Of a stretch of 40,380 nt of DNA, positions 3,686 through 34,751 are shown one piece after another. This stretch comes from a virus (lineage: Duplodnaviria > Heunggongvirae > Uroviricota > Caudoviricetes). The position numbers and the translations under genes are program-made. The DNA lies in the IMG/VR virus record IMGVR_UViG_2744054872_000003, positions 1 through 40,380 of that record. One strand, 5' to 3'. Every line of letters begins with the position of its first letter. The stretch's first letter is position 1. The notes below the pieces were generated by a model. That model saw nothing but the letters and a program-made list of their open reading frames with translations. It did no database searches and was not told where the DNA came from.

Positions 3686-5941
3686 GTTCAATGCAGTCCA
3701 ATCATTACTAGTGAGACCATGAGACTTCCACCATTTACTTGTCCCTGGAAGCCATACCTCTTGACCAATAAATCGAGGTGTCACGTTACCAACAGGAGTG
3801 CTCATTCCGGCACTTGTAACAACATATCCATATTTTGCTGGGCCTGTTCCATTATTAAGGATTGTATCCTTTGTTATGCCTGTTGCCCCATTGTACCATT
3901 CCAAATCACTACCGCTAGCACCGCTAATAAATTCAGGCATAAAGTGTGAAAATGAATTATTGGCATCCACTCTTGCACCATGGTAAGCCTTATAACCGCT
4001 GGCTTGAGTATTGCTCCACCTCCCTCCTTTTACACTACCAGCAGATGAAGAGAAAAATCTTGCCGCATATCTTGCAAAACCGGCTATATTTATATCATTC
4101 AATTCATAATCAGAAAGAGACGCAATTGACATACCATCATTATTAGGAATACCTGATGCTATTTGTGGGTTTGATGCATATCCTGTTAATGTTGCTCCGT
4201 TAATATATATCCCCGTGCTTGGCCCAGTCTCTGATGTGTATATTCCAACTCCAGAACAGTTAAAAACCTGAAGATCTGTTATTCTAACATTTCTGGCACA
4301 ATTAAAGCTCAAGCCACGCTCAGCTGGTGAATAGGTATCGCGCATAGGATATCCGACATCACGCAAGCGAACTCCGTTAATGCTAATGTTGCTAGGATTC
4401 ATACCTTGTGTTACTGACTCAAAACCTTCAAATGTAATGCCATTACCAACATTGACTCCCACTACATTACTGACATGAATATCTGAGACATACCTTTTAA
4501 ATCCGATAACTCCATGGGCACAATTACGACCAACAACGTTGGTGATAATGCAATTACGTGTACCTCCTGGCACCGCTGCAGAACAATAAATTCCCAAATC
4601 CCGACAATTATCTACGAGAAGGCCGTCAATGACGGAATCTATAGCGCTTGCATACATCAGGCATGAATCAGGAGCATTAACAAGTTCAACATTCTTTAGT
4701 GTGCAACGTGCTCCACCAAAGGTAAGGATATCAGCTACAGCATAAAGCTTGTTGTTTTCTTGATTACCATCAATGCGTAAATCACGTATATGAACATCAT
4801 TAGCCCCCATGTTGTGAACAAGGTAGTAGGCCTGTGTTTTATCAACACAAATATCATCCGCAAATTTAAGCCATCCCCCAGCACCGATAAGTATTGTTTT
4901 CTCCTTGATCTGTAATCCAGTAAATATCCATGGATCTCCATCTTTATTCTTTGGAGTAATCTTTATTGCACAATAACCAGGAACAGAACCAGAATAATCA
5001 AGTGCTGCCTGTAGCGTCTGCTGATCTGTCATGCTACCAAACATAAAAGAACGCACATCAATACAGTCATCAACCTGTAATTCCAATTGTAGGCCATCAA
5101 AACGGTCAACAATAACAATACCATCTGCAGTAATACCCGTATTTGGAGTTACTGAGTACTTATTATAACTACCGGCAGAGTTTTTAACCGCCACCAGGCG
5201 ACCTTCAACGGTAGTGTTTGTTGTCAGCTCAGCCTGAGTGTCGAGCTCCATCGCAATGCCACCAATAAGTGAAGCTCCGGTAGGCTTTGCGAGTTCAATC
5301 AGCACATCTGAAGCAGAACCTGAAGGAGGTAAAACAACAATAGGGTTACCGCCGTTGTCGAAAGCTGGAATTTTATTAGCACGGGTAGCGGCATCAGGAA
5401 GTTGCGGTATCTGCTCCTGAACGCGCAACGTATTTCCTAGATTAGTACTGAGCAGTGTATCAACATAATTTTTAGTAGCAGCATCTTGAGGCTTTGAAGG
5501 ATCGCGTAAATTACGGATGTAATTGTTTAGCGCATCATAATAGTTAGCCACGAATGATGGTTTACGCAGCGCCAGGCTAAACCAACTTCTAACCTGCTGA
5601 ATCAACATCGTTAACTTATCAAACGCATCCTCATGCACCTCAGCAAAAAACTTACCCTGATTGCGCAGATCAGTTTCCTGTGTAACCGGTAGCTCTCGTG
5701 ATATAGAAATCTGATAATCGTTAGCCAACGCCTTCGACAGAATTACATTGCCTCCGTTATACCCTCCCGCACCAGTGACTGTGTAATCAGTATCAAGAAC
5801 CAGCACAGTGATATTCTCGTCAAGGTCAATCACCTGCACAACCAGATCAGATTTCTGGAATATCCTGAAGGTATAAGGGAATGTCGTTGTAACACCGTTA
5901 CCGGTGTATTCGTTGTGGTCAACTTCGGTTGAGACCGTCAT
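3683..5941 (-). CDS. Tailspike protein with T7 gp17-like N-terminal attachment domain and beta-helix-type central domain
   Basis: N-terminus YTGNGVTTTFPYTFRIFQKSDLVVQV resembles the conserved podovirus tail-fibre/tailspike N-terminal domain; central region has Asn/Gly/Val-rich repeats typical of a parallel beta-helix depolymerase. Confidence 0.75.
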   Translation of the reverse strand: MTVSTEVDHNEYTGNGVTTTFPYTFRIFQKSDLVVQVIDLDENITVLVLDTDYTVTGAGGYNGGNVILSKALANDYQISISRELPVTQETDLRNQGKFFAEVHEDAFDKLTMLIQQVRSWFSLALRKPSFVANYYDALNNYIRNLRDPSKPQDAATKNYVDTLLSTNLGNTLRVQEQIPQLPDAATRANKIPAFDNGGNPIVVLPPSGSASDVLIELAKPTGASLIGGIAMELDTQAELTTNTTVEGRLVAVKNSAGSYNKYSVTPNTGITADGIVIVDRFDGLQLELQVDDCIDVRSFMFGSMTDQQTLQAALDYSGSVPGYCAIKITPKNKDGDPWIFTGLQIKEKTILIGAGGWLKFADDICVDKTQAYYLVHNMGANDVHIRDLRIDGNQENNKLYAVADILTFGGARCTLKNVELVNAPDSCLMYASAIDSVIDGLLVDNCRDLGIYCSAAVPGGTRNCIITNVVGRNCAHGVIGFKRYVSDIHVSNVVGVNVGNGITFEGFESVTQGMNPSNISINGVRLRDVGYPMRDTYSPAERGLSFNCARNVRITDLQVFNCSGVGIYTSETGPSTGIYINGATLTGYASNPQIASGIPNNDGMSIASLSDYELNDINIAGFARYAARFFSSSAGSVKGGRWSNTQASGYKAYHGARVDANNSFSHFMPEFISGASGSDLEWYNGATGITKDTILNNGTGPAKYGYVVTSAGMSTPVGNVTPRFIGQEVWLPGTSKWWKSHGLTSNDWTALN

Positions 5942-6045
5942 GTTAAATCTCCAGATAGTCGCAGCACCCGTTGCGCCGCATATCTGGTTATTCTATTACC
6001 TGAAAAACCACATATGGATAGAAAGACTGTGAATATGAATAGATA

Positions 6046-6060
6046 TTACCTTTCGGGTAA
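6046..6060. promoter_or_regulatory. Operator-like inverted repeat TTACC-TTTCG-GGTAA
   Basis: Perfect motif copy upstream of the 6137 gene. Confidence 0.5.
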
Positions 6061-6099
6061 TTTGCAAAACGTGCTGGATAGCAAACAAATTATTTGATA

Positions 6100-6115
6100 C
6101 TGTATAAATATACAG
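6100..6115. promoter_or_regulatory. LexA (SOS) box CTGTATAAATATACAG
   Basis: Matches CTGT-N8-ACAG with an AT-rich centre, one mismatch from the E. coli consensus CTGTATATATATACAG; 21 bp upstream of the 6137 start. Confidence 0.65.
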
Positions 6116-6136
6116 TTATTGCATGGAGAAGATAAG

Positions 6137-6394
6137 ATGCAGCAGTATCACTATCCACTGGAAGACGGATTTACCGAAAGGATTCACACGCCGGGAGGCG
6201 TCAGGTCACTGGTGGAGGGATCGCATTTGATGAAATTACTCCGGGATCTCGATAAGGATGGATTTAATGTCGATGGCCCACTTGCCGAACTGACTGCACT
6301 GATTAACTACGTCACCAGCTCACAGATGTCTATGCGGGATCTGCAAACACATCTCGACTATTGTGCCGAACAATTACGAAAACAAACCAGATAA
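6137..6394 (+). CDS. Small protein homologous to the C-terminal domain of the adjacent antirepressor
   Basis: Aligns over about 85 aa with residues about 145-228 of the 6708..7394 product (shared pattern PL-G-IH-P-GV-L-E-S-LM-LL-DG-V-G-AELT-Y-RD-QTH-Y); GGAGAAG RBS. Confidence 0.55.
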   Translation: MQQYHYPLEDGFTERIHTPGGVRSLVEGSHLMKLLRDLDKDGFNVDGPLAELTALINYVTSSQMSMRDLQTHLDYCAEQLRKQTR

Positions 6395-6425
6395 GGTTTG
6401 CAATTGCCAAGTGGAGTGCTTATAT

Positions 6426-6440
6426 TTACCTTTGCGGTAA
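6426..6440. promoter_or_regulatory. Operator-like inverted repeat TTACC-TTTGC-GGTAA upstream of the antirepressor leader
   Basis: Perfect motif copy. Confidence 0.5.
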
Positions 6441-6707
6441 ATTTACATCGCACTCCTCTTGTGCCATAGTAATCGGGCACTGGCAAAATCCAGTGCCGGG
6501 ATTGGCGTCCCGAGTTACTACAGAGGCACATATGCCGCATAAGCGGTTTTTTTTATGTGTAAAGCGCACCTATTCTATGGTGGGCTGTGTGGGGGCACCG
6601 AAAGGTGCGCCGGGTCCTTTGTAGCCGGTTACGCCAACCCTGCACAGTTCACCACCAACCGATTGGCGTCGGTAGTGGTGATTAACCTAACTACAAAGGT
6701 GATCACT

Positions 6708-7394
6708 ATGACTGCTAACGTAACCCCATCTGTTTTTCATTTTGAATCAGAAGCAACCATTCGAGCCATTGTTATTGATGGAAATCCTTGGTTTGTTGCC
6801 AAAGACGTTATTAAAGCTCTTCAACTGACAAACCCCACTATGTCAATAAAATCTCTTGATGATGATGAAAGGGCTAAATTTAACTTAGGCCGTCAAGGCG
6901 AAACCAATATTATCAACGAGTCAGGCCTCTACACACTGATCCTCCGCTGCCGCGATGCAGTAACACCAGGCACTATCCCCTACCGCTTTCGCAAATGGGT
7001 TACAGGTGAGGTACTTCCTCAGATCCGCCGCACCGGAAGTTACATTAAAAACTCGCTCCCGCAGGAAGAACGCATAAAGATGGTTGCCGACCAGGTAGCC
7101 AACGCCACGGCGTCAGCAGTGATGCAGGCAATGAAGATAGAGAACAAAACCTACAGTGCCCCACTGAAGCCCGGCTACCGTAGCCTGATTCATTCGCCGT
7201 CTGGTGTTCTCGGCCTGACGGAGAACTCACTGCTGATGAATCTGCTGAACAAGTTACAGGAAGACGGGCACGATGTATCGGGCGCGGCAGCGGAGCTGAC
7301 CACCATGTTCTGCTACATCGTCGGTGTGAGCAAATGCCTGCGTGATATCCAGACGCACGCGGAGTACATCAACGACAAAGCAGGGTTCTTCTGA
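6708..7394 (+). CDS. Antirepressor, Bro-N domain protein
   Basis: N-terminus FHFESEATIRAIVIDGNPWFVAKDV...NESGLYTLILR fits the Bro-N pattern; AAGGTGA RBS before ATG at 6708; the ORF-track extension to 6555 looks non-coding. Confidence 0.7.
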   Translation: MTANVTPSVFHFESEATIRAIVIDGNPWFVAKDVIKALQLTNPTMSIKSLDDDERAKFNLGRQGETNIINESGLYTLILRCRDAVTPGTIPYRFRKWVTGEVLPQIRRTGSYIKNSLPQEERIKMVADQVANATASAVMQAMKIENKTYSAPLKPGYRSLIHSPSGVLGLTENSLLMNLLNKLQEDGHDVSGAAAELTTMFCYIVGVSKCLRDIQTHAEYINDKAGFF

Positions 7395-7466
7395 CAAGCG
7401 GTGGCACAGGGATGTGCCTTTAAATAATTCTGTACAGATTGCAGACTGTGGGTGAATAGCGTACTA

Positions 7467-7481
7467 TTACCTTAAAGGTAA
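7467..7481. promoter_or_regulatory. Operator-like inverted repeat TTACC-TTAAA-GGTAA overlapping the RBS of the 7494 gene
   Basis: Perfect motif copy directly abutting the AAGGAGG Shine-Dalgarno. Confidence 0.5.
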
Positions 7482-7493
7482 AGGAGGCGCGAT

Positions 7494-7661
7494 ATGACAG
7501 CGTTGAAAAATCGTACTCAGCACAATGAACAAGCCAAGCAATGCTGGGATGTCATTGGAAAAGTTATGCTTGGCCGCGCAAGCAAAGAGCGCGACAAGGA
7601 TATGGTTTACCAGACAGGAACATCTTTCAGCGACTTCAAGGCGGCATTTCGCTCCAAATAG
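7494..7661 (+). CDS. Small hypothetical protein (55 aa)
   Basis: Strong AAGGAGG RBS; protein-like composition; not in the ORF track because it is under 60 aa. Confidence 0.4.
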   Translation: MTALKNRTQHNEQAKQCWDVIGKVMLGRASKERDKDMVYQTGTSFSDFKAAFRSK

Positions 7662-7681
7662 AAGCACATCAGGAGTTTTCC

Positions 7682-8122
7682 TTGAAGTTTAACATTAGAA
7701 TATCTAATAGTTTTCTACATGGGGAAAGCAACACCCCTTTCGCTGTAGACGGACCTTTCCTTACTGATGATGAAATAAAAATCATACAAAGTTTTTTAGA
7801 GGATGTTGCCAATGGAAGGGCGCTTGTTGGAAAAAACAAGCCCTCGTGGGTTGATGATAACCATGATAAAATTCCCGGCTCAGACAATTATGAGCAAGAG
7901 AATTATTGGCATTATCATTGTGGGCCAACATGGTATCCAAACACATTTAAGAATTATACCATTAACTTAAATTTCAACCCTGGCGGAAGGCATTCTAATG
8001 AATGCATTCATTATGCAAAAAATGATAATGAAATTGTCATTGTTGGATTTTCAAGAGAACACATACCTTTCCTTTCATCAGATGGAAACAACAATCCGCT
8101 TTTTAATGATGAAGAAGAATAG
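7682..8122 (+). CDS. AT-rich accessory gene of unknown function (147 aa), probable TTG start
   Basis: ORF with no in-frame ATG after 7541; AGGAG RBS 6 nt before TTG at 7682; markedly AT-rich; acidic C-terminus; ends at a strong terminator. Confidence 0.45.
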   Translation: MKFNIRISNSFLHGESNTPFAVDGPFLTDDEIKIIQSFLEDVANGRALVGKNKPSWVDDNHDKIPGSDNYEQENYWHYHCGPTWYPNTFKNYTINLNFNPGGRHSNECIHYAKNDNEIVIVGFSREHIPFLSSDGNNNPLFNDEEE

Positions 8123-25313: not shown

Positions 25314-25390
25314 GTGGCATTAGCTCAGTTGGACAGAGCAACCGCCTTCTAAGCGGTTGGTCGCAGGTTCGAATCCTGCATGCCGCGCCA
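25314..25390 (+). tRNA. tRNA-Arg, anticodon TCT (reads AGA)
   Basis: Hand-folded cloverleaf: 7-bp acceptor stem GTGGCAT/ATGCCGC (one G-U), D-arm GCTC...GAGC, anticodon stem ACCGC/GCGGT with loop CTTCTAA, T-arm GCAGG-TTCGAAT-CCTGC, discriminator G, encoded CCA. Confidence 0.85.
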
Positions 25391-33781: not shown

Positions 33782-34012
33782 TCATGAGTAGAAGAAGTAT
33801 GCCAGTTCTGCTTTTGAGCGCAGCCATTGTCTTGTTTTACAGGCTTTAAAAAGCCCATTCATCAATACTTTACCTGGCATTTTTCGCTTGCCTGTTAAGT
33901 GAGTCTGGATATAGTGACTCGTCGTTCCGGCTTCCTGTGCGAAGGCTTCACGCTCATCCGGAGTAAGTGCAAGCCAGTGCTTTTTGAAATCGAAATGTCC
34001 GTTATCGCTCAT
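33782..34012 (-). CDS. Cro-like small DNA-binding regulator
   Basis: 76 aa, transcribed divergently from the repressor gene across the tripartite operator region; HTH-like segment around AQEAGTTSHYIQTHLTGKRKMPG. Confidence 0.5.
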   Translation of the reverse strand: MSDNGHFDFKKHWLALTPDEREAFAQEAGTTSHYIQTHLTGKRKMPGKVLMNGLFKACKTRQWLRSKAELAYFFYS

Positions 34013-34166: not shown

Positions 34167-34751
34167 ATGAAAAGTATCCAGGACGTCCGCAGGCAAAATC
34201 TCAACGACTTGATCGACCGTGAATTCAATGGTGTTCAGACGCGGATGGCAGAAAAACTTGGAACTCAGGCAAATCTGGTAAACCGCTGGGCTCTTGGCAA
34301 GAAGGTTATCGGCGACCAGGTTGCGCGAAAAATTGAAGCTGCCGCCAATAAACCCCGTAACTGGCTTGATATCGATCGCTCGCTTTCTCAGGAAGGTTTT
34401 CAGCCTGTCGGCCCAAGCGACATTGGTCAGCTGGCGGCTCACAACCTGGAACGCTGGATGAGCGAAAGCCGCGACCTTTCAACACAGGGAAAACTTCACC
34501 GCGCATCCGGCGTCGCCCAGGTGACAATCAGCCGCCTGTTAAACAATGAGGTCAGCGTTTCCATTTCCACCCTGGAGAATGTTGCATCTGCATTCGGGCG
34601 TCACGGATATGAACTACTGATTCATCCGCATGACCCTGCAACTATCAACTATGACCGCTCGCGCTACGCATTGTTACCTGAAACAGAGAAGGCAAAGATC
34701 GAAAGTTACATTGAATTTGTCATCAACCAGAACGAAAAAAGCAAACAATAA
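34167..34751 (+). CDS. Prophage repressor (cI-like) with HTH domains and no S24 peptidase domain
   Basis: N-terminal XRE-type HTH (MAEKLGTQANLVNRWALGKKVIGDQVARKIE) and a second HTH-like segment; no Ala-Gly/Ser/Lys autocleavage module; sits upstream of the early-left promoter in cI-like orientation. Confidence 0.65.
   Translation: MKSIQDVRRQNLNDLIDREFNGVQTRMAEKLGTQANLVNRWALGKKVIGDQVARKIEAAANKPRNWLDIDRSLSQEGFQPVGPSDIGQLAAHNLERWMSESRDLSTQGKLHRASGVAQVTISRLLNNEVSVSISTLENVASAFGRHGYELLIHPHDPATINYDRSRYALLPETEKAKIESYIEFVINQNEKSKQ

Follow-up and report, generated by a model that had tools for sequence, protein, structure and literature searches.

By its sequence, the 270-base leader ahead of the antirepressor gene ant consists of two described phage regulatory RNAs in tandem, an IsrK-type sRNA followed by a C4 antisense RNA, and we put at roughly 80% the probability that it is an RNA immunity module of the P1 immI type built from these two known RNAs. 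The leader is carried by a phiV10/epsilon15-like E. coli prophage (the whole stretch of DNA analysed, 40,380 nucleotides, is called the window here). It is an ordinary, widespread copy of an immunity circuit of a kind already known from phage P1 and from Salmonella Gifsy-1, and nothing in its analysis is conceptually new. It is present in 941 of 5426 complete E. coli genomes (about one in six) and is without annotation both in the RefSeq E. coli genomes and in the phiV10 GenBank record, where only a "terminator" is marked. C4 would be the main regulator of ant, acting as its repressor. The vague "structured leader / attenuator" of the original prediction can now be replaced by a precise annotation comprising IsrK, C4, a1, b1, a', b', a2, b2, promoter and operator (Table 1).

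Table 1. Positions of the features of the ant leader and its surroundings in the window (site names follow P1: a, the UUGNNNN site; b, the RBS-proximal site).
Feature	Position	Strand	Details
Upstream promoter-like site	6398..6426	+	TTGCAA 6398-6403, 17-nt spacer, TATATT 6421-6426; from a consensus scan; putative promoter
Operator palindrome TTACCTTTGCGGTAA	6426..6440		One of 14 TTACC-N5-GGTAA sites of the prophage
Predicted IsrK promoter	6442..6470	+	-35 TTTACA 6442-6447, 17-nt spacer, extended -10 TGcCATAGT (hexamer 6465-6470); predicted start G6477
IsrK-type sRNA	6477..6554	+	Hairpin 1 6477-6496; hairpin 2 6497-6512; terminator 6534-6547 and T8 6547-6554
a1 site UUGGCGU	6502..6508	+	Loop of IsrK hairpin 2; exact reverse complement of a'
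b1 site CUACAGAGG	6518..6526	+	Pairs with b' over 9 positions, including one G-U
Terminator-enclosing helix	6526..6560	+	6526-6531 with 6555-6560 in the MFE fold; encloses terminator and U tract; forms only in read-through RNA
C4 antisense RNA	6573..6659	+	Closing stem 6578-6594 with 6638-6654; hairpin 1 6595-6608; hairpin 2 6609-6629
b' CCUUUGUAG	6616..6624	+	Loop of C4 hairpin 2; exact reverse complement of 6691-6699 (9/9)
a' ACGCCAA	6631..6637	+	Single-stranded C4 junction; exact reverse complement of 6502-6508 and of 6663-6669 (7/7 each)
Alternative hairpin	6649..6681	+	UCACCAC 6649-6655 (C4 3' strand) with GUGGUGA 6675-6681; a2 in the loop
a2 target UUGGCGU	6663..6669	+	ant 5' UTR
b2 target CUACAAAGG	6691..6699	+	Overlaps the ant Shine-Dalgarno AAGGUGA 6696-6702
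ant (gene under control)	6708..7394	+	Bro-N antirepressor, 228 aa; Pfam PF02498 E = 5e-20; PHROG 130 'anti-repressor Ant' E = 2e-56

Rfam covariance models match both RNAs at full length on the + strand, one after the other with 19 nt between them and immediately 5' of ant, with E-values of about 1e-14 to 1e-16 for the two halves of the leader. The isrK model (RF01394) covers 6477-6553 with 74.2 bits (GA 50; model positions 1-77 of 77) and the C4 model (RF01695) covers 6573-6659 with 79.5 bits (GA 45; model positions 1-87 of 87). RF01394 is titled "isrK Hfq-binding sRNA" in Rfam, and membership here refers to the covariance-model score. The architecture is that of isrK, in which two 5' hairpins (the arms of the first being GGCACTGG, 6476-6483, and CCAGTGCC, 6490-6497) are followed by a Rho-independent terminator with a U tract. 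The terminator stem pairs CCGC (6535-6538) with GCGG (6543-6546) around an ATAA loop, and together with its T8 run it is the sole terminator-like site on the + strand between 5900 and 7700. The Rfam isrK and c4-a1b1 entries describe the same hairpins: the c4-a1b1 motif (RF03163) spans both of them at 6464-6516 and matches at full length with 44.3 bits, just under its GA of 46.7 (E = 3.7e-10), while VT2-Sakai, phi315, an Actinobacillus phage and P1 reach this threshold.

Folding of the RNA from 6477 to 6730 gives an MFE of -103.6 kcal/mol, against -80.4 +/- 4.8 kcal/mol for 200 shuffles, none of which was as good (z = -4.8). The hairpins, the T8 stem, the operator and the ant start named in the original prediction are all in place, and the small RNA gene that it suggested as ending ahead of ant is there: the first hairpin, the second (6497-6512) and the T8 terminator make up a full-length RF01394. 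The second half of the leader, which includes the hairpin at 6594-6611 (GGCACCGAAAGGTGCGCC), is a separate C4 gene that had been missed.

The MFE fold also reproduces the C4 structure, with its long closing stem and two inner hairpins. In an alignment to the annotated C4 of P1, whose mature ends (G3344...ACC3420) fall on 6579...6656, the mature RNA is predicted to span about 6579-6656 and to carry an ACC(A) 3' overhang. The closing stem ends with the pair U6578-A6654 and is followed by CCA (6655-6657), a sequence compatible with a tRNA-like acceptor stem and with predicted processing by RNase P, the enzyme that processes C4 in P1.

Two exposed segments of C4, a' and b', are complementary to the downstream sites a2 and b2, which cover the ant ribosome-binding site (RBS), and upstream copies of both targets, a1 and b1, are present in IsrK. 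The post-initiation control of ant that had been proposed is also right. C4 loops are complementary to the ant RBS, where AAGGTGA precedes the ATG. Around a1, the identity extends to a 10-nt block, GATTGGCGTC, found at 6500-6509 and again at 6661-6670. Predicted duplexes of a' and b' reach -15.6 and -14.5 kcal/mol with IsrK and -10.3 and -12.6 kcal/mol with the ant UTR; as modelled, pairing with IsrK appears at least as stable as pairing with the UTR. At the single locus these energies are modestly better than those of shuffles (62 and 128 of 1000 shuffles were as good for the UTR sites), and because this margin is slight, the case for C4:target pairing rests on exact complementarity and on covariation.

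The three copies of each site co-vary across about 100 distinct phage leaders. Without filtering, the a1 core recurs exactly downstream and is matched by its exact reverse complement within C4 in 99 of 103 distinct leaders, with 11 specificities in all. In an alignment pre-filtered for exact a-site matches, a1:a' pairing is found in 329 of 329 cells, with 47 double-change cells, and a':a2 pairing in 98.8% of cells, with 44 double-change cells; in both cases none of 500 shuffles was as good. The leader set numbered 123, and a site-based search was used in place of a strict C4 regular expression, which missed 36 of the 123, most of them with a C4. Column-based covariation is inapplicable to the b sites and to the terminator-enclosing helix, since loop-length variation shifts the alignment register, and these were assessed locus by locus with purpose-built tests, using cross-locus pairs as controls. 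Exact b':b2 complementarity over 7 nt or more is present in 86 of 100 leaders, as against 8.5% of cross-locus pairs, and 62 distinct b cores co-vary between the C4 loop, the RBS region and IsrK. Compensatory changes are seen in IsrK hairpin 1 and in the terminator stem (RNAalifold consensus), and covariation in the C4 closing stem and hairpin 1. Ten phage loci were examined, among them those of Stx phages, APSE-2, Tyrion and Klebsiella, Yersinia and Actinobacillus phages, and in most of them the same RNA tandem stands 5' of a gene for an antirepressor, a Bro-N protein or Rha.

Upstream of IsrK, the promoter consensus drawn from 98 distinct regions reads TTGAC...gCTATAnT and keeps a fixed distance from the IsrK +1 (A-11 in 98%, T-7 in 99%); its counterpart in P1 is P1c4 (P51b). 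The original prediction invoked an operator-proximal promoter, and a candidate is indeed found at 6398-6426, but it is probably not alone, the conserved sigma-70 promoter lying downstream of the operator. The -10 of the upstream promoter-like site abuts the operator, a layout shared with phiV10, Tyrion and a Klebsiella phage, and the operator sits exactly between the two sites, overlapping the -10 and +1 of the upstream promoter-like site and adjoining the IsrK promoter at its -35. There are 14 TTACC-N5-GGTAA sites in the window, 11 of them perfect, against an expectation of 0.64 and with 0 of 100 shuffles reaching that number; among relatives, variation is confined to the centre and the half-sites are conserved. 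A candidate to bind the operator is the HTH protein encoded at 34167-34751. A spacing of N6 was rejected, as TTACC-N6-GGTAA gives only 2 one-mismatch matches, none of them at the operator. A link to DNA damage, also proposed, does not concern the leader itself: the LexA box (6100-6115) lies 5' of it, before a different small gene. No terminator separates the SOS-controlled gene immediately 5' of the module from IsrK.

How might these elements act together? Transcription would start at about G6477 from the conserved sigma-70 promoter and possibly also from the upstream promoter, which the prophage repressor would block at the operator. Most transcripts would end at the T8 terminator, giving an IsrK-type sRNA of about 78 nt, and read-through RNA would run across C4 into ant. 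C4 would adopt its fold of a long, tRNA-like stem enclosing two hairpins and then be excised (by RNase P in P1). Pairing of b' with b2 on the ant Shine-Dalgarno, and of a' with a2, would block ant translation, and the untranslated message would probably then be terminated, by analogy with P1. IsrK would mimic both targets through a1 and b1. These would pair with a' and b', in cis on read-through RNA or in trans when the sRNA is free, and draw C4 away from a2 and b2, lifting repression. Whether the antirepressor is made would depend on the proportions of terminated IsrK, read-through RNA and processed C4. The leaky terminator, the trans-activation by IsrK and the a1:a' pairing in this scheme are taken by analogy from Gifsy-1, and the antisense repression of the RBS likewise from P1. 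In ZX5, a close relative of this phage, lysogeny drops about 1000-fold when the antirepressor annotated at the equivalent position is over-expressed (PMC9782041).

Two further helices are conserved among the leaders. The terminator-enclosing helix has a duplex energy of -7.65 kcal/mol within loci versus -5.15 kcal/mol across loci (p = 3e-23, 96 leaders), with several compensatory variants. The alternative hairpin at 6649-6681, which is mutually exclusive with the C4 closing stem, is paired in 95.5% of cells, shows a compensatory change in 6 of its 8 pairs and was matched by none of 500 shuffles. It is conceivable, though we find it rather doubtful, that with these helices IsrK is a dedicated anti-antisense sponge and that the epsilon15/phiV10-like module forms a three-RNA decision circuit undescribed as such, in which repressor occupancy and LexA cleavage shift the ratio of a1/b1 decoy RNA to C4. 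If true, such a circuit would respond to transcriptional input by releasing antirepressor translation in an all-or-none manner.

In its plan the module closely resembles immI of P1 and P7. A repressor operator (Oc4), tandem promoters (P51a/P51b), upstream target copies (a1 b1), c4, downstream targets on the RBS (a2 b2), in P1/P7 also icd, and the antirepressor (ant1/2) follow in the same order. The C4 RNAs belong to the same Rfam family (68.8 bits for P1, 79.5 bits for the window), specificity is set by two short complementary segments, and many repressor operators are scattered over the genome in both. Differences from P1 are nevertheless several. Among the ORFs of the window there is apparently no icd-like one between C4 and ant, and b2 lies on the ant Shine-Dalgarno itself; the intermediary ORF is a feature of the P1 operon and not of the C4 RNA family. 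The upstream target copies are located within an sRNA with its own intrinsic terminator, whereas P1 scores for c4-a1b1 and not for isrK. Neither the operator sequence nor the repressor is related to its P1 counterpart, the antirepressor belongs to the Bro-N proteins, and the phage is an integrating epsilon15-like podovirus rather than a plasmid prophage. In P1, the role of a1/b1 is annotated only as 'putative'.

Another close relative is the isrK–orf45 (STnc1160)–anrP region of Gifsy-1, with an IsrK of the same Rfam family, a terminator that is leaky in Gifsy-1, a C4-like processed RNA downstream and then the antirepressor gene. There, the leaky IsrK terminator yields a short sRNA and a read-through mRNA, the processed RNA STnc1160 arises 3' of IsrK, and anrP translation rises 139-fold when IsrK is supplied in trans (Hershko-Shalev et al., 2016, PMC4825925). 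Both IsrK and STnc1160 are highly expressed in Gifsy-1 lysogens. Experiments with compensatory changes demonstrated the pairs G28-C162 and G31-C159 of IsrK (PMC4825925), which correspond, by their position in conserved sequence, to pairs within a1:a'. The IsrK pairing mapped in Gifsy-1 is thus equivalent to the a1:a' pairing of the P1 scheme, so that the P1 and Gifsy-1 literatures describe one system. Co-expressed STnc1160 failed to counteract IsrK toxicity (PMC4825925), which a simple decoy model does not predict. The module studied here differs from Gifsy-1 in adjoining the tail-spike gene and not antQ, and in having a presumed extra operator-controlled promoter upstream. IsrK activation in Gifsy-1 works via translation of the upstream orf45 (PMC4825925); here ATG 6577 opens only 15 codons, ending at 6624, so this step is not transferable and translational coupling is unlikely.

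Does C4 act at the ant RBS, or upstream at the IsrK terminator? The CI RNA of P4 is likewise a processed antisense RNA with target copies (seqA/seqC) on both sides (likened without sequence comparison), but it causes premature transcription termination of replication genes and masks no antirepressor RBS. By a similar mode, C4 would pair with a1/b1 on the nascent leader and raise termination at the IsrK terminator, placing control at read-through. Such a mode would fit the position of b1, which directly adjoins the terminator hairpin (6534-6547), as well as the conservation of a1/b1 and their covariation with C4, and the possibility was raised by the Gifsy-1 authors, who call IsrK a structural homologue of P4 SeqA (PMC4825925). 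The location of b2, on the ant Shine-Dalgarno here and adjoining the start codon in most relatives, points instead to translational control, and constitutive STnc1160 did not lower the effect of IsrK in Gifsy-1. We regard the P4-like mode as improbable; it and RBS masking are not mutually exclusive.

The attenuator of the original prediction fares worse. In its classical form the T8 terminator would be switched in cis by an antiterminator fold, under a leader-peptide ribosome, a ligand or a protein and with no trans-acting RNA. The intrinsic terminator within the 5' leader is real, and partial read-through is known for the Gifsy-1 homologue, yet leader peptide, aptamer and conserved antiterminator are all missing: there is no ORF with a ribosome-binding site 5' of the terminator, Rfam gives no match to a riboswitch, leader or cis-regulatory family even at E <= 1, and the 5' arm of the terminator takes part in no conserved alternative helix. 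The sole competing hairpin seen by eye (GGCA/UGCC, 6525-6536) has 4 bp and is missing in relatives. The terminator-enclosing helix uses sequence transcribed after the U tract and so cannot decide termination. Moreover, the element matches an sRNA family and has a predicted promoter to itself. A classical attenuator is accordingly very unlikely.

Hardly credible at all is the full Gifsy-1 mode, in which the leader would be translated, as an orf45-like peptide over C4 or as an Ant N-terminally extended from ATG 6555, and the coupling unlocked by IsrK: orf45 translation is required in Gifsy-1, the ORF from ATG 6555 runs in frame into ant and some relatives have an annotated small ORF across C4 (VT2-Sakai orf34, phi315), but ATG 6555 follows directly on T8 without a Shine-Dalgarno, its frame meets a stop in phiV10 because the C4 loop is 1 nt shorter there, reading from the ATG that is conserved in the C4 5' strand gives ORFs of 3 to 267 codons across the family (15 here), of the 78 leaders for which a downstream gene was detected only 13 have the coupling geometry, and the substitution pattern is RNA-like, with compensatory pairs. 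A coding leader from ATG 6555 or ATG 6577 was rejected, since frame and length are not conserved.

In immI of P22 (mnt-arc-ant), a small RNA, sar, also blocks the ant RBS, and the antirepressor cassette presumably adjoins the tail-spike gene of a temperate podovirus, as it does here. However, transcription of sar crosses the ant RBS on the opposite strand, whereas the regulator of the present module is encoded upstream on the same strand. An antisense RNA of the sar type was rejected, as it would need opposite-strand transcription over the ant RBS and a consensus scan of limited power found no promoter-like site on the - strand in 5900-7700.

For the IsrK-C4 module, the variable cores of 4 nt and of 7-10 nt (11 and 62 variants, respectively) are candidate determinants of heteroimmunity, and the a/b cores could predict which co-resident prophages cross-regulate each other's antirepressors. 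The b core differs between the window and phiV10, and the a core between the window and Tyrion. All APSE genomes (phages of Hamiltonella) are reported to encode a single c4 and a single isrK RNA, whose a'/b' match sequence 5' of the neighbouring Bro-N gene. This arrangement is confirmed here for APSE-2, whose specificity sequences differ from those of the window (a = UUGACCU, b = UAACAAGG).

The stretch of about 270 nt between the operator and the antirepressor gene belongs to an immunity module of the standard IsrK/c4-a1b1–C4–ant type. When the whole window was scanned against Rfam at curated thresholds, three matches were obtained: one tRNA elsewhere and two, isrK and C4 antisense RNA, that together fill the leader (see the table). 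A permissive threshold added only c4-a1b1, whose match spans both 5' hairpins of isrK. The individual elements of the original prediction were all recovered, and the leader feature is real. The first hairpin corresponds to IsrK hairpin 1, the second to the first inner hairpin of C4, and the stem with eight T residues to the IsrK terminator, the sole + strand intrinsic-terminator-like site that a consensus scan found in 5900-7700. The RNA is strongly structured (6477-6730, -103.6 kcal/mol vs -80.4 +/- 4.8 in shuffles, z = -4.8). The ant start and its Shine-Dalgarno were located in sequence 6380-6760, and the gene encodes a Bro-N antirepressor (Pfam PF02498, E = 5e-20; PHROG 130 "anti-repressor Ant", E = 2e-56).

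Positions of the RNA elements, regulatory sites and tRNA gene in the window
Feature	Position	Strand	Detail
TTACC-N5-GGTAA sites, 15 nt each	3290, 6046, 6426, 7467, 24977, 28086, 28104, 31704, 31766, 33712, 34049, 34097, 34809, 34871
Second promoter-like site	6398-6426		TTGCAA-17-TATATT
Operator palindrome	6426-6440		TTACCTTTGCGGTAA
IsrK promoter	-35 6442-6447; -10 6465-6470		TTTACA, 17-nt spacer, TGcCATAGT; predicted start ~G6477
c4-a1b1 (RF03163, "a1, b1 targets of C4 antisense RNA")	6464-6516		44.3 bits, below threshold of 46.7
IsrK hairpin 1 arms	6476-6483/6490-6497		GGCACTGG/CCAGTGCC
isrK (RF01394)	6477-6553	+	74.2 bits, threshold 50, model positions 1-77/77
10-nt block, identical copies	6500-6509; 6661-6670		GATTGGCGTC
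a1	6502-6508		UUGGCGU; loop of IsrK hairpin 2
b1	6518-6526		CUACAGAGG; in IsrK, pairs with b' over nine positions, one of them G-U
IsrK terminator	stem 6535-6546; eight T 6547-6554	+	CCGC-ATAA-GCGG
C4 antisense RNA (RF01695)	6573-6659	+	79.5 bits, threshold 45, model positions 1-87/87
C4 first inner hairpin	6594-6611		GGCACCGAAAGGTGCGCC
b'	6616-6624		CCUUUGUAG; C4 hairpin-2 loop, exact reverse complement of b2
a'	6631-6637		ACGCCAA; C4 single-stranded junction, exact reverse complement of a2
a2	6663-6669		UUGGCGU; target of a'
b2	6691-6699		CUACAAAGG; overlaps ant Shine-Dalgarno
ant Shine-Dalgarno	6696-6702		AAGGTGA
ant start	6708		ATG
tRNA gene	25314-25387	+	69.4 bits; may be a prophage end marker or a phage-borne tRNA

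The isrK and c4-a1b1 families overlap and model the same two hairpins, in the window as in four other loci (L007, L009, L010, L011); isrK stands outside the C4 clan (CL00128), and both families are therefore reported side by side. The module is already known: Rfam has a curated family for each of the two RNAs, P1/P7 and the Salmonella prophage Gifsy-1 have served to dissect the circuit, and the co-occurrence of c4 and isrK beside a Bro-N gene has been published for APSE phages.

The leader had been proposed to be either an attenuator or a small RNA gene terminating before ant. The small RNA is borne out by the isrK match, which ends at the terminator, whereas a classical attenuator is not supported, since a leader ORF, an aptamer and a conserved antiterminator were all looked for in the leader and not found. 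Most transcripts starting at ~6477 would instead stop at 6554 to give IsrK, while read-through RNA would supply both C4 and the ant mRNA. C4 would mask the ant ribosome-binding site through b':b2 and a':a2, and a1/b1 of IsrK, or of the IsrK segment in long RNAs, would compete for a'/b' and relieve repression. A P4-like action, in which C4 affects termination at the IsrK terminator, is possible and could coexist with masking of the ribosome-binding site; the authors of the Gifsy-1 study point to an analogy with P4 SeqA/CI (PMC4825925).

The complementarities behind masking and competition, named after the annotated P1 record, are maintained across the family. Among 103 distinct leaders with the IsrK signature and T-run, 99 contain all three sites, namely an a1 core, an a' downstream that is exactly its reverse complement, and an a2 that repeats the core exactly; 11 different cores occur (among them UUGGCGU, UUGGUCU, UUGGAAC, UUGACCU and UUGAGAC). 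In a 47-sequence leader alignment (A1), a1:a' is paired in 329/329 cells (47 double-change) and a':a2 in 98.8% (44 double-change), percentages that are partly by construction, as A1 was drawn from leaders already having exact a-site matches; the unbiased figure is 99/103. For both pairings 0/500 shuffles were as good, and sliding the register lowered pairing to 16-49%. When the C4 hairpin-2 region was compared with the 75 nt after a2 (b':b2), the longest exact complement reached at least 7 nt in 86/100 leaders vs 8.5% of cross-locus pairs; 62 distinct cores were seen. The same comparison with the IsrK b1 region gave complements of at least 7 nt in 59/100 vs 4.3% cross-locus. The RNAalifold consensus contains IsrK hairpins 1 and 2, the terminator, the C4 closing stem and C4 hairpin 1, with compensatory changes at 22/39 pairs. 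The a'/b' duplexes are predicted to be at least as stable with IsrK (-15.6 / -14.5 kcal/mol) as with the ant UTR (-10.3 / -12.6).

In P1, ant silencing requires C4 besides C1, and C4 acts at the ribosome-binding site. The arrangement in the window matches the annotated order of the P1 immI operon (Oc4, P2c4, P1c4, a1, b1, c4, a2, b2, icd, ant). P1 C4 is processed by RNase P. Alignment of the mature C4 ends in the P1 record predicts a mature RNA of ~6579-6656 in the window, with an ACC(A) 3' overhang.

For Gifsy-1, the same study reports that isrK-promoter transcripts partly pass the IsrK terminator into orf45-anrP, that the long RNA is translationally silent and that IsrK in trans raises anrP translation 139-fold (PMC4825925). 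It also describes STnc1160, a stable processed RNA from downstream of IsrK, and the compensatory pairs G28-C162 and G31-C159 (PMC4825925), which would map within a1:a' as judged by the conserved IsrK CGGGAUUGGCGU and the C4 segment ACGCCAA. Gifsy-1 lysogens transcribe both IsrK and STnc1160 at high levels in every condition tested. Differently to the window, Gifsy-1 requires orf45 translation; this requirement cannot apply here because the frame from the conserved ATG 6577 closes after 15 codons. With a length of 3 to 267 codons across the family, the corresponding ORF was rejected as coding; coupling geometry was found in 13/78 leaders with a detected downstream gene. A coding leader from ATG 6555, in frame with ant, was likewise rejected: it has no Shine-Dalgarno, and the phiV10 frame reaches a stop.

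Two further helices are conserved and are not accounted for by the published models as described in the text of the papers. The first, between 6526-6531 and 6555-6560, closes around the IsrK terminator hairpin and U tract, can form only after read-through and co-varies (duplex energy self -7.65 vs cross-locus -5.15 kcal/mol, p = 3e-23). What might it do? Processing or stabilising of the long form are possibilities. The second is an alternative hairpin in which residues 6649-6655, otherwise the 3' side of the C4 closing stem, pair with GUGGUGA (6675-6681), so that a2 comes to lie in the loop. This hairpin and the C4 fold exclude each other; its pairs form in 95.5% of cells, and 6/8 of them show compensatory changes.

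Transcription of the module would be driven by a conserved sigma-70 promoter before the IsrK start (TTGAC then gCTATAnT; A-11 98%, T-7 99% in 98 distinct upstream regions). The operator lies directly upstream of the IsrK -35 and overlaps the -10/+1 of the second promoter-like site, a pair resembling P51a/P51b of P1. The window contains 14 TTACC-N5-GGTAA sites (11 perfect) vs 0.64 expected, usually adjoining a -10-like hexamer, a scattered set that recalls the P1 C1 regulon. Several are grouped around the divergent ORFs 33782-34012 (-) and 34167-34751 (+), probably the immunity region; the latter encodes an HTH_3 protein that is likely the repressor. Downstream of ant, a 55-aa ORF (7494-7661, PHROG 8607) has a third operator copy, 7467-7481, right over its ribosome-binding region. 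A perfect LexA-box core, CTGTATAAATATACAG, is present at 6100-6115, upstream of an 85-aa ORF (6137-6394, PHROG 450). The ORF encodes a stand-alone version of the Ant C-terminal domain (Ant aa 145-226 match the same PHROG) and is a candidate for a small, SOS-induced antirepressor. Since no + strand terminator was found from this ORF to the IsrK terminator, SOS-induced transcripts may extend into the IsrK/C4 leader.

The window is an E. coli prophage of phiV10/epsilon15-like (Uetakevirus) type, with 92-97% identity to Phi05_1387 B, TL-2011b, ZX5 and phiV10 over 6000-7500. In the close relative ZX5, over-expression of the antirepressor annotated at the equivalent position brought prophage titres down from 1e9 to 1e6 (PMC9782041). 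The phiV10 record has a single annotation in the leader, a "putative rho-independent terminator", and the eight best E. coli matches listed have no annotated feature under it; the leader is present in 941/5426 complete E. coli genomes. Remoter matches include Stx phages, APSE, Tyrion and phages of Klebsiella, Yersinia, Salmonella and Actinobacillus. Rfam found isrK followed by C4 in 10/10 loci fetched, with an antirepressor, Bro-N or Rha gene annotated next in most of the ten, and a pattern scan of viral contigs added 120 loci. Yersinia phage vB_YpM_41 (L006) carries a full-length ryfA RNA (RF00126, 134.6 bits) at 163-461, ~1 kb upstream of its isrK-C4 module. One viral contig (L050) has two IsrK-C4 modules (3965-3986 and 7227-7248) that have the a core UUGGCGU in both and differ in their b cores, GUACGGA vs UCGAAAC.
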